Origin: Candidatus Cloacimonadales bacterium
Lineage (GTDB): Bacteria > Cloacimonadota > Cloacimonadia > Cloacimonadales > DAONDQ01
Direction: 5' to 3'
Length of the DNA: 64,000 nucleotides
Assembly: GCA_963662275.1 (NCBI GenBank)
Contig: OY759316.1
Span: 3,680,001-3,744,000, forward strand
The notes beneath the pieces are model-generated. The model had not been told where the DNA came from and ran no database searches. It saw nothing but the letters and a program-made list of their open reading frames with translations. The number at the start of each line of letters is the position of its first letter. Position 1 is the stretch's first letter. The translations under genes were made by a program, and so were the position numbers. Below are positions 39,056 to 55,388 of this stretch, in pieces.

Positions 39056-39712
39056 TCAAATAAACGAATCTGTTAGGAATGAATCAATTTGTTCGCGTAT
39101 TTCCTCGACAGAAAACAAGTAGCCTTCCTGCTTCAGGGAAGTTACAAAAGCATCGTGTGTGCGTCCCTGGCGATATCCAGGTTCTTGCTGGGGAGGGTAC
39201 AAATAGCGTGCAATCTCACTAGGTTCCTCAGATACATTCAATACAGCATGATAAAATAACATATCAGGATTGCGATATATTGCAGAACCAAGTATCTTTT
39301 TCTCTCCAATTGCCAAGTCCGATAGTCCTTTGTAATTGATATTTTCAATTCCCAGGCTTTCTAAGGCATTTTGTATTCTAGAACCCATGATATGGAAGAT
39401 TTTTCTAGATTGCAGATCATTGATATTAGTAAACAAAATAGAAATAACGACCATGTTGGGAGTCAGCAGGACAGACTCTCCACCTGTCGGTCTCCTGACG
39501 ATTCGTACACCATCAGCATCAGCTTTATCAACGAAGATAGCTGAATTCAAGTCATTGCTTTGTCCAAGCACCAGCACTTTTTCTTGGGGAATCCAGATCA
39601 ATTTACGTAAACCAAAATCCGAGAAATCAGTTAAAAGCCAGGCATCAGTCAGATCGTATTCTTTTATTCTTTCTGGACTTATTGGCTTAGAAAGTTTTGT
39701 CTTACTCGTCAT
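39056..39712 (-). CDS. lplA: Lipoate-protein ligase A family
   Basis: VRRPTGG, SDLAIGEKKILGSA, FYHA; ends the dehydrogenase operon. Confidence 0.8.
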   Translation of the reverse strand: MTSKTKLSKPISPERIKEYDLTDAWLLTDFSDFGLRKLIWIPQEKVLVLGQSNDLNSAIFVDKADADGVRIVRRPTGGESVLLTPNMVVISILFTNINDLQSRKIFHIMGSRIQNALESLGIENINYKGLSDLAIGEKKILGSAIYRNPDMLFYHAVLNVSEEPSEIARYLYPPQQEPGYRQGRTHDAFVTSLKQEGYLFSVEEIREQIDSFLTDSFI

Positions 39713-41043
39713 TACACATCCAGTGATGCCTCGCCAGCATCCATAAATACTTCAGATACGGTTGGATGGGCATGAATTGTCTGTGCTATATCATAAACGG
39801 TTCCTTCCATTGCCATTAATATGGAAGCCTCAGAGATCATATCCGTGGCATTCGGGGCAACGATCTGCACACCGAGTACTTCTCCATATTTAGGTTCTGA
39901 AAGGATACGAACAAATCCTTCGGTATTCCCTTCCGTCTGTGCTTTTCCATTGGCAAGCAGGAAGTAGATACCAACTTTGTATTCCAACCCTTTCTCCTTC
40001 AATTGCTGTTCAGTCAGACCAATTTGAGCAATCTCAGGGTCAGAATAGATATTCATCGGTGCCTTCGTCAAGTCAAAATCCTTATGTATCCCCTTGATAT
40101 TATTCACTACCTGGATTCCCTGGGCTGAAGCAGTATGTGCTAAAAAACTCTTACCTGTAACATCACCAGCTACGTAGATGGAAGGTATGGATGTCTGCAT
40201 GTTTTCATTCGAATGGATAAAGTTGTTTTGATCCATATCCAGTTTGATCTTCATCTCCGGTAAGATTGCCTTTCGATAACTGCAATTCAGGATCATGTCA
40301 AAAGGAATGACTTGTTCTCCCAACTGTAAGGCTGATTCAGGTGTGATTAACAGTTTATCAGTCACAAAAATGGGTATTTTATCCTGTTTGAAGAGTTTTG
40401 TGAGGAAATCTGAGACATAATGATCCACACCCGGCAGCAAATCCGCTGAAGGACTTACCAGTGTGACCTTCTTACCGATCAGATTAAGTAGTTGGGCGTA
40501 TTCCACAGCGACAGAACCATGTCCCCAGATAACGATATTTTCAGGCAGGTCATGCCATTGAAACAGGTTTTCCATTTCCATGACCTTATCCGGAGGAATT
40601 CCTTCTATCGATGTGGGTTTTGAACCGGTGCAAATGAGTATATTTTCCGTCTCATAGACCTGGTTATTGGCTTCTATGTGATGTTCATCAATGATGGTTG
40701 CTTCCGCCTGGAGGAATTCCACACCATTCTTTTTCCAGAGGAATTCAATTCCCCTAACCAGTTTCTTTACTACACTATCAGCACGTTTCAACGCTACAGC
40801 CCAATTGAATACGATGTTTCCAGGAATAATGCCATCAACACCAAAGGAAGAAGCTTCCTTCGTCTTTTTGAGCATCTTTGCGCTTTCCAGCATCGCTTTC
40901 GTGGGAATACATCCCCAATTGAGACACATTCCGCCTATATAGTTTTTATCGATGATCATGACTTCCATGCCTACCTGACCTGCCCTGATGGCAGCGACGT
41001 ATCCGGCTGGACCGGTACCGATAATGATTAAATCGTATTTCAT
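39712..41043 (-). CDS. lpdA: Dihydrolipoamide dehydrogenase (E3)
   Basis: GTGPAG, GGMCLNWGCIPTK, HAHPTVSE. Confidence 0.92.
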   Translation of the reverse strand: MKYDLIIIGTGPAGYVAAIRAGQVGMEVMIIDKNYIGGMCLNWGCIPTKAMLESAKMLKKTKEASSFGVDGIIPGNIVFNWAVALKRADSVVKKLVRGIEFLWKKNGVEFLQAEATIIDEHHIEANNQVYETENILICTGSKPTSIEGIPPDKVMEMENLFQWHDLPENIVIWGHGSVAVEYAQLLNLIGKKVTLVSPSADLLPGVDHYVSDFLTKLFKQDKIPIFVTDKLLITPESALQLGEQVIPFDMILNCSYRKAILPEMKIKLDMDQNNFIHSNENMQTSIPSIYVAGDVTGKSFLAHTASAQGIQVVNNIKGIHKDFDLTKAPMNIYSDPEIAQIGLTEQQLKEKGLEYKVGIYFLLANGKAQTEGNTEGFVRILSEPKYGEVLGVQIVAPNATDMISEASILMAMEGTVYDIAQTIHAHPTVSEVFMDAGEASLDV

Positions 41044-41051
41044 GAATTCTC

Positions 41052-42431
41052 CTAATACAGCAGCAATGAGCCCGGATCATGCAGATAATCCATGACTTGC
41101 TTCAGGAATCGGGCAGCCTCAGCTCCATCGACGATCCGATGGTCACAGGCAAAGGACAAAGCCATCATGTGAGCTATGACTATTTGATGATCTTTCACGA
41201 TAGGTTTTTCCTGGATTCGCCCCACACCGAGTATTCCCACCTGCGGGTAATTGATCACAGGAACACCGAATGTTCCACCGATCGTACCATAATTGGTGAT
41301 AGTGAAAGTTCCATTCTTGAGGTCTTCGAGAGTAAACTTTCTTTCAGAAGCTTTCGCTTCCAGGGTAAGAAGGTCATTGGCAATTTCATAGATGGACTTT
41401 TTATCTACATCCCTGACGACAGGTACGATTAACCCCTCAGGAGTGTCCATCGCAATACCGATATGATAATAGTGCTTCAAAAGCATCTGGTCATGCTCCA
41501 AATCGAGTTCAGCATTGATGGTTGGGTGGGCTTTCAGGGCATCTACAACAGCTTTCATGATAAATGGCAAATATGTAAGCTTAGAACCTATCTTTATAAA
41601 TTCTTCCTTGTGATGAAGCCGTTCGAGAAAAAGATCGTTCACTTCCACTTCATCCATAGCTGTCATATGCACTGCGTTCTGTTTGGAACGTGTCATGTTC
41701 CTGGCTATCGCTTTGCGTATCATAGTCAATGGTACGGCTTCAACGCCCGTAGCGCCGACTTCAGGCGGTAGTTCTGTTGGTTGTAAAGAAGACTTACTTC
41801 CTAAAGCAGGTGCTACTTTCAGCCGTGTCTTCCCGTCAAAATACAATTGAATATCCTGCTTCATGACCCGTCCGCCTGGTCCAGTACCTACAACTTCACC
41901 AATAATAACACCTAAATCCTTCGCCATCGCCCTGGCAACCGGTGTGGCAAGGACTTTCCTTCCTAAAGGAGGTTTGTCACCGACTAAAGTCGTTTCTACA
42001 CCTTCTAAAGAAGGTGCTACAATAGGTGCTACGGTGGATACTGCAATCCCTTCTGAAGATGCAGGTAAATATGCTCCTTCTCCAGCAATCTCAAGGGTTC
42101 CCACAACTCCAAAGTTCTTTTCTTCAATAGGCTGACTGGTTGCTGACTTGGGCACTTCCACAGCAATTATCTTTGCCTGTTCAGGAGAAACTCCTTCTAT
42201 TTCGAGTTCCACCAGCACATTTCCCACATTGATGACATCACCAACATTTCCATACCTGGCTGCAACGGTACCAGCCTTGGGTGATGGAATATCTGTTACT
42301 ACCTTGTCCGTTTCCATCTTCACCAGGGCGTCCCCTGATTTAATGGATTGACCTTTATCAATGTACCACTGGAGAATCTTTCCTTCCGTAATTCCTTCAC
42401 CGATATCGGGAAACTTGAATGTAAAACGCAT
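41052..42431 (-). CDS. pdhC: 2-oxoacid dehydrogenase E2 (dihydrolipoamide acyltransferase)
   Basis: Lipoyl domain METDKV; PSBD ATPVARAMA...GTGPGGRV; DHRIVDG. Confidence 0.9.
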   Translation of the reverse strand: MRFTFKFPDIGEGITEGKILQWYIDKGQSIKSGDALVKMETDKVVTDIPSPKAGTVAARYGNVGDVINVGNVLVELEIEGVSPEQAKIIAVEVPKSATSQPIEEKNFGVVGTLEIAGEGAYLPASSEGIAVSTVAPIVAPSLEGVETTLVGDKPPLGRKVLATPVARAMAKDLGVIIGEVVGTGPGGRVMKQDIQLYFDGKTRLKVAPALGSKSSLQPTELPPEVGATGVEAVPLTMIRKAIARNMTRSKQNAVHMTAMDEVEVNDLFLERLHHKEEFIKIGSKLTYLPFIMKAVVDALKAHPTINAELDLEHDQMLLKHYYHIGIAMDTPEGLIVPVVRDVDKKSIYEIANDLLTLEAKASERKFTLEDLKNGTFTITNYGTIGGTFGVPVINYPQVGILGVGRIQEKPIVKDHQIVIAHMMALSFACDHRIVDGAEAARFLKQVMDYLHDPGSLLLY

Positions 42432-42446
42432 GTTATGCCCCCTTGC

Positions 42447-43424
42447 TTAAAACTTCACCAGTTTTTCGATTTCGTAAGCAATTCGTTCTGGTGGAATGAT
42501 GTAAAAATGTTCACCAAGCGGAAGAGGAACGATCGTATCGAACCCGCTTAATCGAACCGGTGGCGCTTCCAAGTGCAGAAATGCCTCTTCAATACAAATC
42601 GTCACTAATTCAGCTCCGGCACCAAAGCGTGAAGGGGCTTCTGAAACGATGAGGACACGTCCTGTTTTTTGAACCGATTGCCGAATGGTATCCCGATCAA
42701 TGGGATAAATCGTACGCAGATCGATGAGTTCAACGGAAATACTCTTATCCTTCAGCAAGACCATTGCCCGTTGTACTTCCCGAACCATGGCGCCATAGGC
42801 AATCACGGTGATGTGTTCACCTACATTCAGTACATTTGCTTTGCCGATGGGGATGGTGAACTTCTCTTCCGGTACTTCCTGTTTAATAGCTCTATATAAG
42901 CGTTTAGGCTCCATAAATATGATAGGGTCTTCAGACTCAATAGCGCTGATGAGCAGACCTTTGGCATCGTAAGGAGTGGAGGGAATCACGACCTGCAAGC
43001 CCGGGTATTGGGCAAAGAGAGCTTCAGGGCTTTCAGAATGGTGCTCCAAAGCATTGATGCCTCCGCCATAGGGAAAACGAATGACCATTGGAGCATGGAA
43101 CTTGCCTCTTGAACGGTTGCGTATCCTTGCCACATGTGAGAATATCTGGTTGAGTGCCGGATAGGAAAAGCCATCGAACTGCATCTCCACAATAGGTCTT
43201 AAACCGGCGATAGCCATACCTAAACCGCTACCTGCAATGGCTGCCTCTGCCAGGGGAGAATCGAAGACACGTGCTTCACCGTATTTCTTCTGGAGATTTT
43301 CAGTCACACGGAACACACCGCCTTCCACACCTACATCTTCACCAAAAAGGATGATCTTCGGATCTTCAGCAAGTTTGATATCAAGAGCATTATTGATTGC
43401 CTGTACTAGATTCATGACGCTCAT
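42447..43424 (-). CDS. pdhB: 2-oxoacid dehydrogenase E1 beta
   Basis: GEDVGVEGGVFR, DSPLAE, EMQF, EHHSES. Pyruvate versus branched-chain substrate not resolved. Confidence 0.9.
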   Translation of the reverse strand: MSVMNLVQAINNALDIKLAEDPKIILFGEDVGVEGGVFRVTENLQKKYGEARVFDSPLAEAAIAGSGLGMAIAGLRPIVEMQFDGFSYPALNQIFSHVARIRNRSRGKFHAPMVIRFPYGGGINALEHHSESPEALFAQYPGLQVVIPSTPYDAKGLLISAIESEDPIIFMEPKRLYRAIKQEVPEEKFTIPIGKANVLNVGEHITVIAYGAMVREVQRAMVLLKDKSISVELIDLRTIYPIDRDTIRQSVQKTGRVLIVSEAPSRFGAGAELVTICIEEAFLHLEAPPVRLSGFDTIVPLPLGEHFYIIPPERIAYEIEKLVKF

Positions 43425-44509
43425 TTTGCCCCCTCAGTTGCTGCAATAAATTGCTCGTATGCTTTTCTCTGGCGTTTGAGTTCATCAGGAACATAGCTAT
43501 ATAAATGGTTAAACACATCATCGAGCGGATAGGTAGAATAGTTTTCTGCTATTTCGAATTCAGTTTCCACCAGCTTTTGATATGTTTGAACCAACTCATC
43601 TTCATCTGCTTGCGTGATCAATTTCTTTTCCTGCAGGTACAAACGTAGGCGAAGAAGCGGGTCTCTTTCCAGCCACAGCTTTTCTTCTTCACCTGTCCTA
43701 TAGCGTGTGGGATCATCCGAGGTGGTATGAGCTCCCTGCCGATAAGTGACAGCTTCTATCAGAACAGGTCCTTTTCCGCTTTCCGCATAAGCCCTGGCTT
43801 CTGTCAGGACATCCAGCATGGCTAAGTAGTCATTGCCATCGACCAGGATACCTGGAATGCCATATGCAATCGCTTTGCTGGCAAGATTGATGGAATTTGT
43901 CTGCTTCTTGATGGGCATGGAGATAGCAAACTGGTTATTCTGGATGATGCAGATCAGGGGCACTTTCCAGACCGAAGCGAAGTTAATTGCTTCATGGAAA
44001 TCACCTTCCGATGTTCCACCATCACCCACAAAGCCAAAGACAACTGACTTTTCCTGTTTGAATTTCATGGCATAAGCGATACCGGTGGCATATTGAATTT
44101 GAGAGGCAATGGGAACAGCCGAAGGGAGTAATCGATTCGCTTTTTCAAAACGGGAACCACGTTCATCACCCCGATAATACATGAAAATCTCATGTAATTC
44201 TGCACCCTTTGCCAACCAAGCTCCCATTTCACGAAAGGCTGGAACCAGCCAATCTTCTTCGCTGATGACCTTCCCCGCTGCGGCTGAAATGGCTTCCTGC
44301 CCAAGATTGGGAGGGAACGTGAACATCCTGCCCTGCCGTTGAAAGCTGACTGCCATCAGGTCAGCAGTTCGGTTGAAAAGCATTGTTTTGAATGCGTCTA
44401 AAAGTAGTTTATCATTGAATTCAAATTGAGTTGGAGAGGCAACTATCTTACCTGTTTGATCCATGATTTGGATCATTTCATTCTTGAGGGGATCGTAGGT
44501 CTCGATCAT
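43421..44509 (-). CDS. pdhA: 2-oxoacid dehydrogenase E1 alpha
   Basis: QRQGR, GQEA, GDGGTSEGDF...NNQFAIS, HTTSDDP. Confidence 0.9.
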   Translation of the reverse strand: MIETYDPLKNEMIQIMDQTGKIVASPTQFEFNDKLLLDAFKTMLFNRTADLMAVSFQRQGRMFTFPPNLGQEAISAAAGKVISEEDWLVPAFREMGAWLAKGAELHEIFMYYRGDERGSRFEKANRLLPSAVPIASQIQYATGIAYAMKFKQEKSVVFGFVGDGGTSEGDFHEAINFASVWKVPLICIIQNNQFAISMPIKKQTNSINLASKAIAYGIPGILVDGNDYLAMLDVLTEARAYAESGKGPVLIEAVTYRQGAHTTSDDPTRYRTGEEEKLWLERDPLLRLRLYLQEKKLITQADEDELVQTYQKLVETEFEIAENYSTYPLDDVFNHLYSYVPDELKRQRKAYEQFIAATEGAK

Positions 44510-46359: not shown

Positions 46360-46608
46360 ATGAGGTCTGCAAAAGTCAGTAATCTGGCTATCAGTGACAA
46401 CGGCTTCGTTTTTGATCCGACAACCGGTTACAGCTATAATACAAATGAGATGGGCTTTTTTCTCTTGAAATTAATGGAGGAAGGATTCGAACAGGATGAG
46501 ATCATTACCCGTATCATGGATGAATATGAAGTAAACCATGACACTTTGGAACGTGACCTAGATTTTTTCAGCCTGCAGATGAAATCTCTTGGTTTGCTGG
46601 AAGACTAA
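46360..46608 (+). CDS. Stand-alone PqqD/RRE-family protein
   Basis: 82 aa; beta-rich GFVFDPTTGYSYNTNEMG then helices ...EYEV...ERDLDFF...LGLL; RBS AGGAGG. Confidence 0.85.
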   Translation: MRSAKVSNLAISDNGFVFDPTTGYSYNTNEMGFFLLKLMEEGFEQDEIITRIMDEYEVNHDTLERDLDFFSLQMKSLGLLED

Positions 46609-46776
46609 GATGTCATTTTCTTTAGCTCATTTCAAAGGCACGATCGCTGTCAGTGGTCTGAAAACCGGAGATAATCCGCAGCCGGGTGTACCTGTTATCC
46701 GTAGTATCCGCAATGCTGGATTCGAAGGTAAAATCATTGGTTTGATCTATGATTCGCTTGAATCAGGTATCTATGT

Positions 46777-48637
46777 GAGACTGTTCATGAAGTTATTCAT
46801 AATATTCAATAAGTTAGAAAGTAGCAAGTTGAAAAAAGTGGTCGAAACGGTCATAATTTAACATACCTTCCAGAATTGACAGATAAGCTCTGCTAAGGAC
46901 ACCAAATCACAAGTTAAGCTTTTTGACTAAAATTGAAAAACACGCGATTATAAGTAATGTTTCGAAGCCGTTTCTGACTAAATGTGTAGTTAAAATCATA
47001 TAAAATAGTTCTTTACAAGTTTTTTGCTATAGCTTCAATGGCATTTGTTACCTGGTAACAAAAGGGAGGATATTATGACAAAAAAACACTCCAATTCAAG
47101 AAGCGGTAAGTGTTAGTCATGAAAGTAACCAATACCATGTAAGTATTAACGTACCATTTTCATTCACTTTGCCTGAGACAACATCAAACCACAAGTTCTT
47201 AATAGCGTTTCTACGCTTATTAGTAGGAATAGGCGGAGACAACCTCCTTACACTTCAGCAAATAGCTGATCTGTTTAACTACGCAGACCGCAGGAATGTA
47301 CATAATTTCTGGCAAGAGTTTGAGCAGCATGGTCATGATATCCTGGCATATTTAAGCCGGAAAGTTGACCTGCTGGAGTGTATTCCTCAGATCGAGAATT
47401 TTGTTATCAATAACCTGCTTTTACCTTTAAATGTCATGTATCAGGAGTTCATCAGCCATCATGATTTTAAAATGTCCTATACCACTTTCTGCAAATATGC
47501 TTCTCAGGTCAATTCTCTGTCTGTAGTTAAGCAAGCTCAGAAGCTTCTTCTGAAAAAGACAGTAGGCGGTGATGCTGTACATCTGCTGAAACTGCTTGCC
47601 GGTCAGCAGAATACACCTGTTATCTGTGACAGACTCCTGGAACAAATGAAGACTGCTAAAGGCAATACATCCCATAGAACCGCCGATGCAAAGCCGTTCC
47701 ATAGTCTGGAACGCAAGAACCTGTGTCTGCTGGTACATTACCTGGTTGGAAGCGGTATGAACTTCGAGACGATAGCTTTGCTGCTCAACACCTGTAAAGC
47801 TACAGTCTCAAATCTCTGGCATGAAATCGCTGACCTGCAGAGCCTGATTCTGAACTCAATCGGTAAGTGGAGCGGAAAGATCAGCATTGATGAGAAATAT
47901 GTGAAGATCAAAGGTATTCCGTACTATGTCATCAGTATTGTTGATTTTGTGACTCACATCCCTCTGTTTTGTGAGTTGTATCCTGACACAAAGAAAGAAT
48001 CATTCGAAGCATGTTTCAGAACCTTCAGACAGCTCTACAGGAAAGATCCAACCCTGATTGTCAGTGATGGCAGTAAATCGTTAGCAGTTGCAAGAAAAAC
48101 AGTGTTTCCAAAAGTCCATTACCAACTCTGTAAGTTCCATAAGATACGAAATCTCTTCAAAAGAATCAGTCAATGTCATCTCCCTGAAGACAGGGACAAG
48201 TTCTTTAAGAAGAGGATTATGAAAGCTTTCCGAAGAGAAACGGCGGGCGGAAGGAAAAAGGGTATCGCAAGCCTGACAGCTATTACTCCCCCAACCGCCG
48301 CCGAATACATCAAAAGCAATATCATTAGTGATTGGAGACACCTCAGCAAAGGTTTGACTTCCAATGTCTCTGAACGCTGGAACCGCAAAATCAAGAAGGT
48401 GACATCCGGTAGATTTGGACTAAAATCTGAAGAAACCACCCGCAACCTTGTGTTTTCGCTTTGGTTCAAAGAACTGGTCGATAAAGGTCAACCAATCATG
48501 CGTCAGGAATCACTTTTAGCAAGTTTAAATATCTCCCGCATATGTCAAGAAAATGTGGATTGGTCGCACTTAGACCACTTTTTCTCTGTCACTACCAATA
48601 AGGCTGCGTAAAATGGAGGTTAATTTTGAACAGTCTC
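46777..48637 (+). mobile_element. Insertion sequence, 1861 bp, copy 2
   Basis: TIRs GAGACTGTTCA / TGAACAGTCTC. TSD ATCTATGT at 46769-46776 and 48638-48645. Confidence 0.95.
47169..48611 (+). CDS. DDE transposase (protein identical to copy 1)
   Basis: Identical translation to 945-2387. Confidence 0.9.
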   Translation: MPETTSNHKFLIAFLRLLVGIGGDNLLTLQQIADLFNYADRRNVHNFWQEFEQHGHDILAYLSRKVDLLECIPQIENFVINNLLLPLNVMYQEFISHHDFKMSYTTFCKYASQVNSLSVVKQAQKLLLKKTVGGDAVHLLKLLAGQQNTPVICDRLLEQMKTAKGNTSHRTADAKPFHSLERKNLCLLVHYLVGSGMNFETIALLLNTCKATVSNLWHEIADLQSLILNSIGKWSGKISIDEKYVKIKGIPYYVISIVDFVTHIPLFCELYPDTKKESFEACFRTFRQLYRKDPTLIVSDGSKSLAVARKTVFPKVHYQLCKFHKIRNLFKRISQCHLPEDRDKFFKKRIMKAFRRETAGGRKKGIASLTAITPPTAAEYIKSNIISDWRHLSKGLTSNVSERWNRKIKKVTSGRFGLKSEETTRNLVFSLWFKELVDKGQPIMRQESLLASLNISRICQENVDWSHLDHFFSVTTNKAA

Positions 48638-49877
48638 ATCTATGTTGACGGTCTTGTGGATAAAGTTTACCAAATGCCCTATCCCTCAGAAGGGGCAGAG
48701 ACATTCATGGATAGGATGGATTACATCCTGTCACATGATAAGATTGATGTCATTATTCCAACCCTAGACTCGGAAATTATTACATATTTACGTCTGAAAA
48801 GTGAATTGATCAATCGTGGGGTGCATACTTTCCTACCTGAAGAAGAACAATTCATCCTAAGAGATAAAACAAAACTCAGCACATTCTTTCCCCCAAAAGG
48901 TATCGCTGTTCCTAAAACAATTATCATGAATGATCCGAGGCAAGCGAAAGATATCTCCAAGGACATACCCTTCCCTGTGATTGTGAAGGGACGATTTTAT
49001 GAAGCTTTTGCAGCAAACAATCCCGATGAAGTAGTTAAATTATACCACCTGATTGAACATAAATGGGGATTACCCATACTTGTTCAGGAGATTATTATTG
49101 GTGATGAATTCAATGTCGTGATCATCGGTGATGGCAAAGGTAAAACAATCGGTATGGTGCCTCAACGAAAACTGGTGATTACAGATAAAGGCAAGGGTTT
49201 CGGGGGAGTTGTTGTTAAGAATGAGAAACTGGAAGCATTTTCCAAGAAGATTATCGAGATTCTGCATTGGCGTGGTCCTTGTGAATTGGAAATCATGAAG
49301 GATAGTAAAGATGATTTTTATCTGTTAGAAATCAATCCCCGCTTTCCAGCCTGGGTAAGATTAGCAGAAGGTGCCGGTCAGAATTTACCCGCTGCAACTG
49401 TAGCCTTGGCTATGGGAGAAAAAGTGGAACCGTTCACCGAATGTAACACCGGAACTCTCTTTATTCGTCATGCAGAAGATTTAATTTCGAATATTGCAGT
49501 GATGGGAGAGATCTCTACAATGGGGGAACTCACGAAGTGCGAAGTGCGAAGTGCAAAGTCCGAAGCGGAAGAGAAGAATAAAACCACGAAACACACGAAA
49601 ATCACGAAAGAAGATAAGTGATAGAATATCTTGCAAAGATGTGTTCCCATTCCTCTCTTTGGATATAGAGAGGTGGTGGTTACTGAGCGTAGTCGAAGCA
49701 TAGTGTCGAAGAGTTTGAGAAACAGTATGTAAATACGAAGTTAAAGAAACTTAGGAAAGATGAAGAGCAGAACTTACTCTCGTCTAATATAGTTGACCCC
49801 CTTAATCCTCCCTTAACAAGAGGGTAAAAGAGCGGGGAACCAGATAAAGACCAGAATTAAAATAAAAGGTGTATAGA

Positions 49878-51227
49878 ATGAAAAAGTCATATAGTCCGCC
49901 CTATATTGAGAAGAACAATGCCGGATTCATGAATAAATTCGCTTATCGCAGCGTCGTGAATTACCAGGATAAAATTGAGAATATTCCGATTGAATCGATT
50001 GTTTCCAAATATGGTTCACCGGTATTTGTTTTTACTGAAGCTACAATTCGTAAAAGATACCGTCGCTTGCTCCAGTCCATAAGTATGCACTATCCGAATG
50101 TGGAAATCTCGTGGTCATATAAAACCAATTACCTGGGGGCAATATGCAAAATATTCCACCAGGAGGGTGCAAAAGCGGAGGTTGTGAGCGGATTTGAATA
50201 TGAAAAAGCACGTGATTTGGGAGTTGCCGGAAGAGATATTATTTTCAATGGACCTGGAAAAAGAGAGCATGAAGTACGCACTGCCATGGAAGATGGAGCA
50301 AAGATACATATCGATCATCTTGATGAATTATTCATGGTGGAAAGAATTGCCAGGGAACTTGGTAAAGTAGCGGAAGTTGCGATTAGAGTCAATATGGATA
50401 CAGGTATCTACCCTCAATGGTCACGTTTTGGCTTTAATTATGATAACGGTGAAGCATATCGAACGATCCAGCGCATCGTTGCCGGCAAGAAATTGAAACT
50501 CACAGGTCTCCATACACACATAGGTACTTTCATTTTAGATGCAAATGCCTATTATGTGGCTGCTTCAAAACTACTGGCATTGGCTCAGAAAGTAAAGGAA
50601 GATTTCCATTTTGCCATTTCCTATATCGACCTGGGTGGTGGATTTGCTTCTAATAACACATTACATGATTCCTATACACCCGGTGAATTCTCTGCCCCAT
50701 CATTTGATCAATATGCACGTGCCATTGGAACAGCGTTCAATGAATCCCAGTTTTCACGGGAAGAATCACCTCTACTCATCCTGGAATCAGGACGTATTCT
50801 TATCGATGAATCAGGTTATCTGATTGCCAGTGTGCTTGGGAAGAAGAACCTTCCAAGCGGAGAGAGAGGTATCATCCTGGATGCCGGTCTGAATATCCTG
50901 TTTACGACTTGGTGGTACAAACTCAAGATAACACCCACCCAGCCATTTAGTGGAACCTATCAGAATACTCTGTTCAACGGTCCTTTATGTATGAATATTG
51001 ATGTAGTTCGACCGCCTTTCAGCTTTCCTGATCTACAGACTGGAGATCACATTCTTGTCAATCCGGTTGGTGCTTATAATGTCACTCAATGGATGCAATT
51101 CATTGAATATCGACCGAATGTCATTCTGATTACAGAAACTGGTGATCTGGAACTCATTCGGGAAAAGGAAACACTCCAGGATGTAATTCAACGGGAACGA
51201 ATCCCTGAGCATTTAAGGAAAATCTAA
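49878..51227 (+). CDS. PLP-dependent group IV (DAP/Orn/Arg-type) decarboxylase-like protein
   Basis: SYKTN (PLP Lys), FNGPGK, HTHIG, DLGGG, ESGR, GPLCMNID, GAY. Substrate unknown, so not called lysA. Confidence 0.85.
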   Translation: MKKSYSPPYIEKNNAGFMNKFAYRSVVNYQDKIENIPIESIVSKYGSPVFVFTEATIRKRYRRLLQSISMHYPNVEISWSYKTNYLGAICKIFHQEGAKAEVVSGFEYEKARDLGVAGRDIIFNGPGKREHEVRTAMEDGAKIHIDHLDELFMVERIARELGKVAEVAIRVNMDTGIYPQWSRFGFNYDNGEAYRTIQRIVAGKKLKLTGLHTHIGTFILDANAYYVAASKLLALAQKVKEDFHFAISYIDLGGGFASNNTLHDSYTPGEFSAPSFDQYARAIGTAFNESQFSREESPLLILESGRILIDESGYLIASVLGKKNLPSGERGIILDAGLNILFTTWWYKLKITPTQPFSGTYQNTLFNGPLCMNIDVVRPPFSFPDLQTGDHILVNPVGAYNVTQWMQFIEYRPNVILITETGDLELIREKETLQDVIQRERIPEHLRKI

Positions 51228-51230
51228 GGA

Positions 51231-53399
51231 ATGTTATCATTCCGCGAAGTCGTCAGTAAAATTGCCTTCATACCGAAAGCGATATTGAACTCATACAGTA
51301 TTATTCTATTTTCATATAATCGCTGGATCGGTTTATTACTATTGTCCAGTACTTTTCTTGCTCCTATTGTAGGGATATCCGGATTGATTGGAGTCCTAAT
51401 CGCACTATTAACAGCAAGGTTACTAGGATTTGAACCTTGGAACTCAACCTCAGGGATCTTGTCATTCAATAGCCTTCTGACTTGCCTTGGAATCGGATTT
51501 TATTTTCCCGTCGCAAGCTATGGTCTTGGTGTGTTATATCTTTTACTTTTCATTGGATCGATATTCACATTATTGCTGTATATCACACTCGATAATTTGC
51601 TCTATGGCAAACTGAAAATACCCTCGATGAGTATGTCATTTTCCATCGTATCTATCTTTATGTGGCTGTTTTTAATGCGCATTGGACATAGTCAGCACTT
51701 GCCTCATAACCAGATGTACGTAATGAATTTCACACCTGTTGTACCTGTATTTGTGCTGAATTATTTCCAAAGTATAGGTGGTATATTCTTTCAACCCTAT
51801 TTCCTGACAGGACTATGTATCGCTGTTGCCTTGTTTTTCATTAGTCGGATAGGATTTCTACTATCAATCATTGGATATACCGTTGGGTATTTTTTCATCA
51901 TTCACTGGGGAGGTAAGGGAGCAAGCGATGTCTTTTATCCCGGTTTCAACATGATGTTGGCAGCTTTTGCGATTGGCGGAATCTTTCTTGTTCCAAGTAG
52001 AATATCCTATTTGTTAGCGATTATAGCTGCCTTCATTGGAATAGTCATTGCGTTCTCCATTGAAACATTATTTCGTGATTTCATGATTCCCCCATTTGCA
52101 TTGCCTTTCAATGTTACCGTTTATATGATAATCTATGCCTTACAATTACGTCTCAAGAATCGAAATCCCTATGTGAATGACTTTAATATACTTCACCCGG
52201 AATTAGCTTTGGAATATTACTTATCCCATATCAACCGTTTTGCCCGTTCAGGAGTTCCCCAGTTCTTCTTACCTATTACAGGTGAATGGACAGTGACCCA
52301 GGGAAATCATGGTGAAATCACACATAAATCAGATTGGGCATATGCCTGGGATTTTGAAATAATGGATCGGGAAGGTAAGAATTATCATCATCATGCCGAG
52401 GAAGTTGATGATTATTATTGTTATGGAAAAGCCGTTTATGCTTCTGCAGGTGGATACGTGGCAAAAATAGTGGATGGTATTGCAGATAATCGAATCAATC
52501 AAATCAATACCGAACAGAAATGGGGTAATTATCTGACCATACAGCACGGTATTGGTGTTTATTCACTTTACGCACATTTAAAATCGGGTAGTGTGAAATT
52601 GAAAGTCGGTGATTATATCCCGCAGGGAGAGAAAATTGCTTTGATTGGTAATTCAGGACGCTCTGCTGTACCGCATCTTCATTTTCATATCCAGACCACA
52701 TATGAAGCCGGCTCAAAAACTTTATTCAGCAATATAGCCAATTATAAGAAACGGGAAAAGGTCAGCCAATCACATTTTATCAGTTTTGGAAATCCGAAGC
52801 TAGCTGATTTGATTTCTCCCCTCATGGCAGAATTGAATTTGCAGGAAATTATGCATTTTCTGCTTTTCCAGAAATTATCCTTTGATGTTACCATTGGGAA
52901 ACGGCATTTTGAAGAAAATTGGGAAGTGGAAGTGACACTAATCGGAACATTTAATATCCACTCTGACCGGGGTAGTTATCTTGATTTCTCCGTTTACAAC
53001 GGTATATATAACGCTCTTGCATTCCGGGGTAATCGGAAAAGTGCCTTATATGCCTTCGCCTTATTGCTTTCCAGATATCCCTATGCAGAGAATCAAACGC
53101 TCGAGTGGAATGATACACCTTCATTCTCTGTAATGATGAAACCATTAATAAAACAAATTGTCTTATTGATTTCTTCTATTGGGAATCCTTTCAAATTTAA
53201 TACAAAATCAATTTCTCATTCGGAAGATAATAAACATGAAGTCGAATCTCTGACAACTGTAAGTTTTTTGGGAAAACTATTGATTAGCTACGAAGGTAGG
53301 ATTCAAATGGAAAAAAAGACTGGTATCGAGATGATCGATATTCACAAGAATGGAAAAGAATATTTACAAGCGCAAAGAATTCAGGATAAGAAATCCTGA
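51231..53399 (+). CDS. Urea-transporter-like membrane domain fused to an M23 peptidase
   Basis: About ten TM segments with FNSLL / PPFALPF, then H..WAYAWD, YAHL and GNSGRSAVPHLHF. Confidence 0.8.
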   Translation: MLSFREVVSKIAFIPKAILNSYSIILFSYNRWIGLLLLSSTFLAPIVGISGLIGVLIALLTARLLGFEPWNSTSGILSFNSLLTCLGIGFYFPVASYGLGVLYLLLFIGSIFTLLLYITLDNLLYGKLKIPSMSMSFSIVSIFMWLFLMRIGHSQHLPHNQMYVMNFTPVVPVFVLNYFQSIGGIFFQPYFLTGLCIAVALFFISRIGFLLSIIGYTVGYFFIIHWGGKGASDVFYPGFNMMLAAFAIGGIFLVPSRISYLLAIIAAFIGIVIAFSIETLFRDFMIPPFALPFNVTVYMIIYALQLRLKNRNPYVNDFNILHPELALEYYLSHINRFARSGVPQFFLPITGEWTVTQGNHGEITHKSDWAYAWDFEIMDREGKNYHHHAEEVDDYYCYGKAVYASAGGYVAKIVDGIADNRINQINTEQKWGNYLTIQHGIGVYSLYAHLKSGSVKLKVGDYIPQGEKIALIGNSGRSAVPHLHFHIQTTYEAGSKTLFSNIANYKKREKVSQSHFISFGNPKLADLISPLMAELNLQEIMHFLLFQKLSFDVTIGKRHFEENWEVEVTLIGTFNIHSDRGSYLDFSVYNGIYNALAFRGNRKSALYAFALLLSRYPYAENQTLEWNDTPSFSVMMKPLIKQIVLLISSIGNPFKFNTKSISHSEDNKHEVESLTTVSFLGKLLISYEGRIQMEKKTGIEMIDIHKNGKEYLQAQRIQDKKS

Positions 53400-53416
53400 T
53401 AGATTAAGGAGACATA

Positions 53417-54025
53417 ATGACTAAGATTTCTTCCATCATAATAATGGTGCTTTTCATAAGTAACATATTATTTGCTCAACCTGCAGCAACACTGCTTCAA
53501 ACATCTTATAATGCAGAAGCCGGCAATAATTTCCAGCTTGCTATTGAATCGATAAAAACCATAGAAAAAGACAACGATGCAGATCCATTTTATAAGTTGA
53601 GACTGGGATGGCTTTATTATAGCTCTGGTCAGTACCAATCTGCTTTGGATTACTATACGAAAGCATCTTCCCTTACAAATTGCCTGGAAGCTAAGGAAGG
53701 TATCATCAATTCTGCTTATTTGCTGGGAAAATGGGATAAAGTCATTGCTACCGGAAATCTGATACTAGATAAATTCCCCGATCATTATTCAGCATTAACA
53801 AAGACTGCTTATTCACAATATGTCCTTAAGAACTATGTAGCTGCTGCCAGTATTTACTATAAGTTACTGAATTATTATCAGTATAACTTGGAAATACGTG
53901 GTTATTACTTAAGCTGCCAGGTTCTTGCAGGTGATCTTGTCAATGCCAAGAGAACATTCCAACAATTGCAGCAATACAGTCCGAACAATCCTTTTATTCT
54001 TGAATATGCCAAGAAATTCCGTTGA
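53417..54025 (+). CDS. Secreted TPR protein
   Basis: Signal peptide; LRLGWLYYSSGQYQSALDYY and further TPR-like helices. Confidence 0.75.
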   Translation: MTKISSIIIMVLFISNILFAQPAATLLQTSYNAEAGNNFQLAIESIKTIEKDNDADPFYKLRLGWLYYSSGQYQSALDYYTKASSLTNCLEAKEGIINSAYLLGKWDKVIATGNLILDKFPDHYSALTKTAYSQYVLKNYVAAASIYYKLLNYYQYNLEIRGYYLSCQVLAGDLVNAKRTFQQLQQYSPNNPFILEYAKKFR

Positions 54026-54038
54026 TTAAGTTGAAGTA

Positions 54039-55388
54039 ATGAAATTTTCTTTGCTGCTTGTCGTGTTGTGTATTACCAGTATTTTACTTGCTCAATCTAA
54101 TGAAGCAGATGTCCAAGATAGTACCAGGTATATTCAAAACCCTGTTGAAAGTCCAGTTCAACATAATCTGCAAGCTTATGAGTTAATGATGGCTGGTCAT
54201 TATACTCTGGCACTCAAGGAATATGAAATTGCGTTAAAGCTCAATTCATCTGATTCCGTTGCCCGTGAAGGAATTCTCTGGGCTAATAATAGCCTTCATC
54301 GTTGGAAAAATACGATTACCACAGGTCAGAAATACCTGAAAAAGTTTGGTTATGATGCAAACATCGAATTATATCTTGCCTATGCATACTTTGCAAAAAC
54401 AGATTATCTACATGCCCGTCAGTGTTATCTATGGAGCTCTGAATACTTAGGCTGGTATGCAGCAAATACTTCTGGGATGGCTTGGACTTTTCGTATGTTA
54501 GGTGATCATACCAGGGAAAGGAAATTCACTCGAAAATGGGAAATGCTTGTTCCGGATTCACTGAAGGCAATTGTATCTCCCCCCCCCTATCCTCTATATC
54601 TTGGTCATGCTCAATATGCATATTCTACCTGGAATGATAACGAAAAGTCTTTTTTACAGCATTACACTCTTCGCTATCAGAATATTGCAGTTACTTGCGG
54701 AGTAGAAGATATTTGGCAGAATCATCATCTCCTAAGAACTGACTATCTTGCCTCCCTGAATTGGGAAACTCCTATAAGCAGCATGGAATGGAGAGGTAAC
54801 TGGCTGAAAGGGGATTATTCAAATTTATACCCGGCAAATTCGCATTTGATTAGTATCAGTAAACTACTTTATGTATCTAAAACACAGTTAGTTCCGGAAA
54901 TTAATGCAGGATACTCATATTATCCTGTTCTTTCGGTATCACAAATAGCCTTCAAACAATCCTATATTCGTGATTCCTGGTGGTTTAGTTATAGCCATGC
55001 TTTGATATATAAGGATTATGATAGTCCCGGTTTGGATTCCAGGAGTAATTGGGCTACCTGGGATGTTGGGACTAGGTTATTAACTAACCTAACTGTTGAT
55101 TTCTATACATCTCATGGTGATCGGACATTTTATGTGAGCAGGGAAATTGGTGTTGTTGATAACAACGTCTCAGCAAAACTGCAATATGGAGCATACTTAC
55201 AATACAATTACAGAATTTTAAATTTAGGGTGTAGTTACTCTAAATCAAAGCATAAGGATAATGAATATTCTTCAACTGTAAGTGTCAATCTCGGGATTGA
55301 TTATTCCCTGAAGGCAACGTATAACGCTGATCATGTTAAAGCTCATTCTGTAAAGCATGATGCCGAACATGCTGGAGTTAAATTCTAA
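54039..55388 (+). CDS. TPR + probable outer-membrane beta-barrel protein
   Basis: Signal peptide; N-terminal TPR helices; alternating aromatic beta-strand pattern in the C-terminal half; terminal Phe. Confidence 0.55.
   Translation: MKFSLLLVVLCITSILLAQSNEADVQDSTRYIQNPVESPVQHNLQAYELMMAGHYTLALKEYEIALKLNSSDSVAREGILWANNSLHRWKNTITTGQKYLKKFGYDANIELYLAYAYFAKTDYLHARQCYLWSSEYLGWYAANTSGMAWTFRMLGDHTRERKFTRKWEMLVPDSLKAIVSPPPYPLYLGHAQYAYSTWNDNEKSFLQHYTLRYQNIAVTCGVEDIWQNHHLLRTDYLASLNWETPISSMEWRGNWLKGDYSNLYPANSHLISISKLLYVSKTQLVPEINAGYSYYPVLSVSQIAFKQSYIRDSWWFSYSHALIYKDYDSPGLDSRSNWATWDVGTRLLTNLTVDFYTSHGDRTFYVSREIGVVDNNVSAKLQYGAYLQYNYRILNLGCSYSKSKHKDNEYSSTVSVNLGIDYSLKATYNADHVKAHSVKHDAEHAGVKF

Follow-up and report, generated by a model that had tools for sequence, protein, structure and literature searches.

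A lasso-leader-like tail on a PLP decarboxylase as the predicted ligand of a stand-alone RRE in Cloacimonadales

RiPP recognition elements (RREs; RiPPs are peptides made on the ribosome and modified after translation) are a common handle for finding RiPP gene clusters, and each is assumed to come with a precursor peptide. The subject of this work is an operon in a Candidatus Cloacimonadales bacterium in which an 82-aa stand-alone RRE (46360..46608, + strand) is encoded together with an ATP-grasp ligase, a 449-aa fold-type III pyridoxal 5'-phosphate (PLP) decarboxylase (49878..51227, +), and a urea-transporter-like membrane domain fused to an M23 peptidase (UT-M23). Positions are those of the window, i.e., the whole stretch of 64,000 nucleotides analysed (contig OY759316.1, 3,680,001 to 3,744,000, forward strand). 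An original prediction made from the sequence alone held that the N terminus of the decarboxylase looks like a RiPP leader, and that the RRE binds it, either to scaffold a decarboxylase/ATP-grasp complex or to direct modification of the enzyme itself.

The closest described systems are the discrete RREs of lasso peptide synthesis (TbiB1, 5v1u and 5v1v; TfuB1/FusB1, 6jx3; PbaB1, 9x90), which share the size (82 aa) and winged-helix fold of the window RRE. According to a structural study from 2026, such B1-type RREs read the motif [Y/W]xxPx[L/V/I/F/A], with the pocket residues of PbaB1 named; the hydroxyl of the leader tyrosine is bonded by an aspartate in LppB (D70), as in actinobacterial B1 proteins; and the part of the leader past the motif is not gripped by the RRE and is thought to meet the modifying enzyme (PMC13381572). 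The window RRE has the lasso RREs as its best sequence and fold matches and keeps their cleft residues and Tyr-facing Asp, and its candidate ligand carries [Y/F/W]xxPx[I/L/V]. The lasso systems differ in that the ligand is a free precursor of 30-50 aa, whereas here it would be the N terminus of a 449-aa enzyme, and in having a B2 protease, a C cyclase and a core peptide, which this operon does not.

Two further RREs bear comparison. LppB of the linear polyphosphorylated-peptide (LPP) pathway is a discrete RRE that reads YxxP in LppA (9x8z), and the spacing between its Asp and Phe is that of D66 and F70 in the window RRE (PMC13381572). LppA, however, is a free peptide that is handed to a signal-peptidase-like leader peptidase, whereas the RRE studied here is partnered by a ligase of the ATP-grasp type and by a decarboxylase. 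In quinohemoprotein amine dehydrogenase, the RRE of QhpD engages the leader of an enzyme subunit, QhpC, and not that of a natural-product peptide, as described in PMC13692751; there the RRE lies within a radical SAM enzyme that crosslinks the small subunit, whereas here the RRE is free-standing and the leader sits on a full-size catalytic enzyme that is not known to be modified.

On the enzyme side, the butirosin proteins BtrI/BtrJ/BtrK likewise comprise an ATP-grasp enzyme and a fold-type III decarboxylase with a small protein encoded alongside, and BtrK structures rank among the nearer solved relatives of the window decarboxylase (7ru7, E 8.4e-33; 2j66, E 9.1e-33). The small protein of butirosin synthesis is an acyl carrier protein, whereas here it is a PqqD-type RRE, with no phosphopantetheine site or thioester chemistry indicated; family scans of the operon proteins gave no match to a carrier-protein family. 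For the catalytic body, FslC of rhizoferrin synthesis (7kh2) is the nearest relative among solved and curated proteins alike; its model begins about 20 residues later, and FslC has no such tail. The FslC pathway is not known to involve an RRE, ATP-grasp or UT-M23 partner.

The decarboxylase tail and the stand-alone RRE

The decarboxylase open reading frame (ORF) begins with MKKSYSPPYIEKNNAGFMNKF, read from the ATG at 49878. These 21 residues occupy 49878-49940; the original prediction had ended the extension at 49960, which falls in codon 28. We take ATG 49878 to be the start because the alternative, a GTG three codons upstream at 49869, sits within the ribosome-binding stretch AAGGTG, and because orthologous decarboxylases begin at the methionine of MKK, several of them with a stop codon immediately before it. 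Both Pfam domains expected of the family are matched (Orn_Arg_deC_N, PF02784, E 3.5e-32; Orn_DAP_Arg_deC, PF00278, E 2.5e-07). S80, Y81, K82, T83 and N84 are invariant in alignments of 50 and of 66 sequences, and K82 is our reading of the putative PLP lysine. Among solved structures, FslC (7kh2, E 2.2e-62), which decarboxylates N-citrylornithine, comes closest, followed by diaminopimelate decarboxylases and BtrK. Since the scores lie under both equivalog cut-offs (FslC, 244.8 bits versus 500; lysA, 215 versus 297.9), the enzyme is neither FslC proper nor LysA proper. No second decarboxylase of this family was found in the genome at E ≤ 1e-5.

The N-terminal tail (residues 1-30, 49878..49967, +) is an extension ahead of the catalytic fold, as had been predicted, the extra piece being about 20-25 residues. 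The AlphaFold2 model of the decarboxylase, built on a 50-sequence alignment, has a predicted local distance difference test score (pLDDT) of 88.2 overall, whereas the three ten-residue blocks of residues 1-30 score 51, 43 and 60; secondary structure is absent before residue 32, and the tail is not packed onto the enzyme in the monomer model. Of the 21 listed solved relatives, 20 align from residue 30 or later (FslC 7kh2 from residue 31), the exception being 3vab, the weakest match, which aligns from residue 16. Curated models for FslC, lysA, DokD and the exosortase decarboxylase start at residues 31-35 of a 452-aa reading of the protein, i.e., 28-32 in the ATG numbering, and are aligned there from model positions 7-23.

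Conservation of the tail was followed in 80 related loci fetched from a one-genome-per-species collection and 50 more from even samples of four phyla. Among the 80, the Cloacimonadota loci show 62-71% identity, and those from Bacteroidales, Ignavibacteriota, Victivallaceae and myxobacterial or deltaproteobacterial metagenome-assembled genomes show 46-52%. The 127 tails recovered (from Cloacimonadota, Bacteroidota and three further sampled phyla) were aligned to a tail profile, and every one carries [YFW]xxPx[ILV]. Position 5 is Y in 102, F in 23 and W in two; position 10 is I in 120, V in four and L in three; P8 and K20 are invariant. Beyond the motif, G16 is kept in 119 tails, N19 in 106, and G or A at position 22 in 126. 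Judged by these alignments, the tail has two boxes: a leader-like motif (residues 5-12, with Y5-x-x-P8-x-I10 here) and a box round an invariant lysine (residues 16-22, G16-x-x-N19-K20-F21-A22 here), and the conservation of the motif goes far beyond chance. The leader-like YxxPxI of the original prediction is thus present, and it is conserved in the RRE-linked homologues and has no counterpart in the RRE-less FslC, LysA and BtrK, a contrast that rests on curated models and solved structures. Phenylalanine at motif position 1 lies outside the first residues of the published motif. Two loci from another phylum (L124 and L134; phylum of G236) have Trp at tail position 5 (WEKP) and still have D at RRE position 66; their tails mirror the Y/W alternation of lasso and LPP leaders.

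The RRE at 46360 was correctly recognized in the original prediction: it matches Pfam PqqD (PF05402) over residues 17-80 with E 1.2e-10 and 42 bits versus a cut-off of 23.4. It is single-copy in the genome, as is the cassette. A profile of 66 RRE orthologues run against solved relatives gave TbiB1 at 2.6e-10, TfuB1 at 6.9e-10, PbaB1 at 9.6e-6 and true PqqD at 0.21. The AlphaFold2 model (pLDDT 86.4) is a winged helix with a short first strand, strands at 16-19 and 24-27, and helices at 30-40, 45-55 and 60-76; Foldseek matched it to TbiB1 5v1u (TM-score 0.82, root-mean-square deviation 1.5 Å) and to 6jx3 (TM-score 0.77). By sequence and predicted fold, the 82-aa protein is therefore best described as a lasso-B1-type RRE, i.e., of the type that reads YxxPxL leaders, as had been supposed.

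The leader-binding cleft is also retained. Cleft positions were mapped from PbaB1 via a hidden Markov model alignment, and conservation was counted over the 66 sequences. The window RRE has Y26, L35, I52, Y56, V58, F70, M74 and L79 at these positions, with D66 as the Asp. Position 26 is Y in 46 sequences and F in 20, position 35 is I or L, position 52 L or I, position 56 Y in 51 and F in 15, position 58 V, position 70 F in 50 and Y in 16, and L occurs at position 74 in 61 and at position 79 in 62. D66 is present in 49 of the 66 RREs, which include every case with a Tyr tail except one with N. It aligns with the Asp of TbiB1 and TfuB1 and stands four residues before the cleft-dividing Phe, like D70 of LppB.

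Covariation, predicted complex and co-occurrence of RRE and tail

The RRE and the tail covary. Over 122 loci, tail position 5 and RRE position 66 pair as Y-D in 98, W-D in two, Y-N in one and Y-H in one; the 20 F tails are paired with Y (11), S (4), E (3), T (1) or H (1), and never with D. Mutual information with tail position 5 peaks, among all RRE columns, at position 66 (0.627 versus 0.419 for the next). An unbiased scan of 83 RRE by 30 tail positions over 118 distinct sequence pairs, with average product correction, likewise put D66-Y5 first, and tail positions 3-7 took part in eight of the ten top pairs. By analogy, D66-Y5 is the Asp-Tyr contact that RRE-leader crystal structures predict, and a constraint on D66 that ceases to act once the tyrosine hydroxyl is lost would fit the pattern.

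The RRE and tail residues 1-40 were predicted as a complex, from a 66-row RRE alignment and matched rows for the tail, alongside three controls. The complex scored 0.50 (runs 0.52, 0.50 and 0.50) versus 0.00 for the best control, with contact agreement of at least 95% and partner pLDDT of at least 53 in the runs. In calibration, 116 of 157 solved complexes came up to the mark applied, as did two of 215 mismatched pairs. The AlphaFold-multimer check proposed with the original prediction was thus passed, within a band that lends weak support.

The RRE and the tail also travel together. By tblastn, the RRE was detected in 72 of the 80 related loci; in the remaining eight, the contig stops inside the ligase gene or shortly before it. 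Of 232 Cloacimonadota genomes, 84 were matched by the tail profile and 86 by the RRE profile (four of these being weak matches to other PqqD families); both parts are present in 81, neither in 147, and four are discordant (G025, G056, G087, G143), with the match at a contig edge in each. G056 was considered as a contrast, with its tail truncated (residues 1-17 missing) and no RRE, and was rejected, its contig ending within the gene. The RRE occurs in 31 genomes of an even sample of 401 from Bacteroidota; of the 30 RRE loci fetched, 28 have the tail nearby and two have it on another contig. One of these two is an RRE locus cut by a contig end. The other is G325, in which the RRE lies on one contig and the ligase and tail-bearing decarboxylase on another; RRE and tail are unlinked there and yet both retained. 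The G325 RRE (L115, 4037-4282) lies beside a 539-aa ORF that looks by eye like a secreted repeat protein, and the G325 cassette (L137, 2236-5198) has an opposite-strand 146-aa gene, by eye a FabA/FabZ-type hotdog protein, between ligase and decarboxylase. A candidate case of an RRE without the tail, G851, was rejected: its weak PqqD match belongs to a different RRE system in a genome without the tail. In that genome (L122, 179-2366), three genes follow one another: a divergent PqqD gene, an ORF resembling, by eye, S26 peptidases, and a gene for a 397-aa protein.

The original prediction had noted that a precursor was missing, and it stayed missing. Clustering covered every ORF of 18-110 codons in the 80 loci and in the window; this screen, which would miss ORFs of fewer than 18 codons and fast-evolving precursors, found no conserved small-ORF or precursor family outside the known genes, bar one family present in 12 loci. 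The members of that family lie several kb downstream of the cassette (e.g., L001, 10986-11195, − strand). No tail-like sequence was found elsewhere in this genome. Free-standing versions of the tail were sought with a profile of residues 1-42 against proteins of 23-74 aa (42 matches among 240 candidates) and with a 30-residue profile against 1.84 billion representatives (96 matches). Nearly all the matches extend past the tail into decarboxylase-fold sequence (HIDGV...GSPLFV) before they break off or become chimeric; five (P0158, P0159, P0193, P0229, P0205) end just past NKFG and are singletons with unrelated ends. Free-standing tail precursors were rejected on this basis, the matches being almost only N-terminal gene fragments and chimeras.

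From these results we consider it probable that the decarboxylase has, in its first 22-30 residues, a flexible lasso-leader-type docking peptide built into its own chain, to which the discrete RRE of the same operon is predicted to bind. Several points weigh against this reading. Perfect co-occurrence is to be expected of any two genes in one operon, and no natural cassette with just one of the two, RRE or tail, was found as a contrast. At complex scores of 0.60 or below, the mark is reached by only 18 of the 157 solved complexes and by both of the mismatched pairs that pass, and the score may reflect memory of solved lasso RRE-leader structures. The NCBI lasso-RRE models score low (lasso_PqqD_Strm, 28.4 versus 70; lasso_PqqD_Bac, 24 versus 80), and family scans and the related loci gave no lasso protease, cyclase or precursor for this operon. 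Mean column identity is 48-50% for the whole tail versus 66-67% for the enzyme.

The covariation, too, is open to another explanation, for it could stem from just one clade. In a tree with 121 decarboxylases (tail columns excluded; L053, which was too short, omitted), tail position 5 changes between F and Y/W only four times and RRE position 66 between D and non-D three times. The three to four independent pairs comprise about 1.9 that change the same way, none that change the opposite way and about 1.1 without difference (sign test, p = 0.5). All non-D RREs fall in one 24-row subtree (length 5.37 of 30.85), and the 97 rows outside it all have D. The proposal that the RRE docks on the enzyme thus came through its computational checks on the motif and on D66-Y5, with binding itself predicted and few independent events behind the covariation, and the checks did not discriminate between scaffolding and modification.

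Proposed docking and alternative roles of the tail

By analogy with solved complexes, the tail would add a strand in the cleft between the RRE β-sheet and helix 3. Of its two hydrophobic pockets, Y5 and P8 would occupy the first, the Y5 hydroxyl being bonded to D66, and I10 the second, and residues 10-13 would pair with the RRE strand. The ATG of the ATP-grasp gene (46610) lies 1 nt past the RRE stop codon, and the RRE and ligase genes are coupled in translation. Because of this coupling, we infer that the RRE would tether the decarboxylase to the ligase; and because, in addition, the leader part past the motif is where a modifying enzyme is met, the RRE may bring the second box of the tail (G16 to G/A22, with the invariant K20) to the ligase along with the decarboxylase, and present it there. 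The ligase product, probably a side-chain-joined amino acid of the kind on which FslC and BtrK act, could then reach the decarboxylase without diffusing away. It counts against this part of the proposal that the scaffold purpose is something we infer throughout.

The same RRE-tail binding is compatible with a second version, in which the tail is not a scaffold but a carrier or substrate. Here the ligase would join an amino acid to K20 by an isopeptide bond, the decarboxylase would act on the amino acid tethered to its own tail or that of its dimer partner, and the channel-fused M23 peptidase would finally free the amine product at the membrane. This version would account for the invariance of K20 and the strong conservation of N19, G16 and G/A22 around it, in a box that stands 6-12 residues past the RRE motif, i.e., in the part left free in solved leader complexes (PMC13381572), on a tail of about 30 flexible residues. 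The nearest characterized decarboxylases use conjugated or tethered amino acids (N-citrylornithine for FslC, glutamyl-BtrI for BtrK), the RRE gene is coupled to the ligase gene and in one case (P0251) naturally fused to it, and the engagement of the QhpC leader by the QhpD RRE offers a precedent (PMC13692751). The fusion, however, is a singleton that may have arisen by a read-through error, it would be unusual for an enzyme to bear its own stoichiometric carrier as a fusion, and the ATP-grasp protein has no close solved relative that points to a protein substrate. We consider this version rather unlikely; were it true, the enzyme would prime itself, combining recognition in the manner of RiPPs with carrier-protein chemistry of the BtrI or LysW kind.

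A third possibility dispenses with RRE-tail binding. The tail might work for its own enzyme or for a different partner, e.g., by making an oligomer contact, closing over the active site as a lid or docking UT-M23 or the ligase, while the RRE binds some other peptide that is unrecognized, very short or unlinked. Co-occurrence within an operon is uninformative on this point, the complex score is weak, the test on independent contrasts is not significant, and room for another ligand is left by the ORFs of fewer than 18 codons and fast-evolving precursors that escape the small-ORF screen and by the short-ORF family of 12 loci. Against it, the top covarying pair of RRE and tail is precisely the structurally predicted Asp-Tyr contact, the tail has the exact motif class read by the nearest solved relatives of the RRE, the monomer model leaves the tail unpacked on the enzyme, and the genome holds no other tail-like sequence; we therefore judge this possibility unlikely. 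That the lasso-leader likeness arose by chance on a short N-terminal extension is very improbable: Y..P.[IL] does occur within the first 14 residues of seven of the 2649 long ORFs of this genome, so that a single motif is weak evidence, but the motif is kept in all 127 orthologues, across phyla at only 46-52% identity overall, and the full tail pattern is matched in the genome by this decarboxylase alone.

The cassette, its interrupted copy and its significance

Positions 46360 to 55388 of the window hold one co-directional row of genes for the RRE, the ATP-grasp ligase, the decarboxylase, UT-M23 and two TPR-type proteins. The UT-M23 gene (51231..53399, +; Pfam UT, E 3.5e-49, and Peptidase_M23, E 1.2e-16) starts three bases past the decarboxylase stop and lies downstream in nearly all related loci with enough flank. 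The conserved fifth gene (53417..54025, +) encodes a protein matching TPR families and is found downstream in most related loci, and the order RRE, ligase, decarboxylase, UT-M23, TPR recurs among them. In one Bacteroidales group, a gene for a 287-aa membrane protein stands between RRE and ligase (L011, 6060-6923; also L012, L016, L017, L023, L031 and L049). The 435-aa protein P0251, a singleton, is an in-frame RRE-ATP-grasp fusion in which the start methionine of the ligase is still visible; it may be a real fusion or the result of a lost stop codon. A search for longer proteins with the RRE returned only this fusion and one unrelated protein, which is too thin to serve as evidence. A supposed RRE fusion in G026 ('open frame 449') was rejected, RRE and ligase being separate ORFs there. 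Upstream in the window, at 39712-44509 (−), four ORFs of 443, 459, 325 and 362 aa resemble, from their translations by eye, the E3, E2, E1-beta and E1-alpha components of a 2-oxoacid dehydrogenase complex.

In this genome the ligase gene is split by an insertion sequence (IS), which the original prediction had missed. The N-terminal piece (46610..46775, +) has 71% identity to residues 4-65 of an intact orthologue (L043). The C-terminal piece (48639..49621, +) matches Pfam ATPgrasp_Ter (E 2.2e-11), and 48626-49543 aligns to residues 60-365 of the same orthologue at 67%, its first codons lying in the IS end and the duplicated bases. No informative or close solved relative of the ATP-grasp protein was found that would hint at its substrate. 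The IS itself (1863 bp, 46776..48638, +; transposase ORF 47169-48611) has perfect 12-bp terminal inverted repeats (46776-46787 and 48627-48638), flanked by a 6-bp direct target duplication (46770-46775 and 48639-48644), and its transposase matches MULE, Mutator and IS256-like models. It cuts the ligase gene after codon 55, and its removal restores the frame.

In the closed 4.38-Mb genome the IS is matched 39 times, with 100% identity in 32 cases, which points to a recent burst. A second copy lies in the window at 919-2780 (−), corresponding to 3680919-3682780 of the genome. Contigs from two public studies enter both ends of the IS from its flanks. No empty-site joint was seen in contigs of four runs; contigs drop rare variants, so a minority allele is possible. 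No RNA data set was listed among the public runs. A dispersed repeat of about 75 bp (49644..49721), with eight other copies at 88-93% and many partial copies in the genome, sits in the 256-bp spacer between ligase and decarboxylase, which is unusually long, since in most relatives the two genes nearly abut; contig depth jumps at this repeat. Reading frames are intact for the RRE, the decarboxylase and UT-M23, and the insertion in the ligase gene looks recent. Because the ligase gene is split, this copy of the cassette is probably inactive.

In the open-access papers searched, we found neither the cassette nor any RRE that docks on a decarboxylase described. What is new, in our view probably, is the reuse of lasso-type leader-RRE recognition between two proteins. 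If this is correct, it would explain a class of orphan RREs that have no precursor, and it would mean that leader-RRE recognition has been reused as a general protein-protein docking module. It would also give an entry point to a five-gene cassette of unknown product that is present in 81 of 232 Cloacimonadota genomes and in 31 of 401 sampled Bacteroidota genomes.

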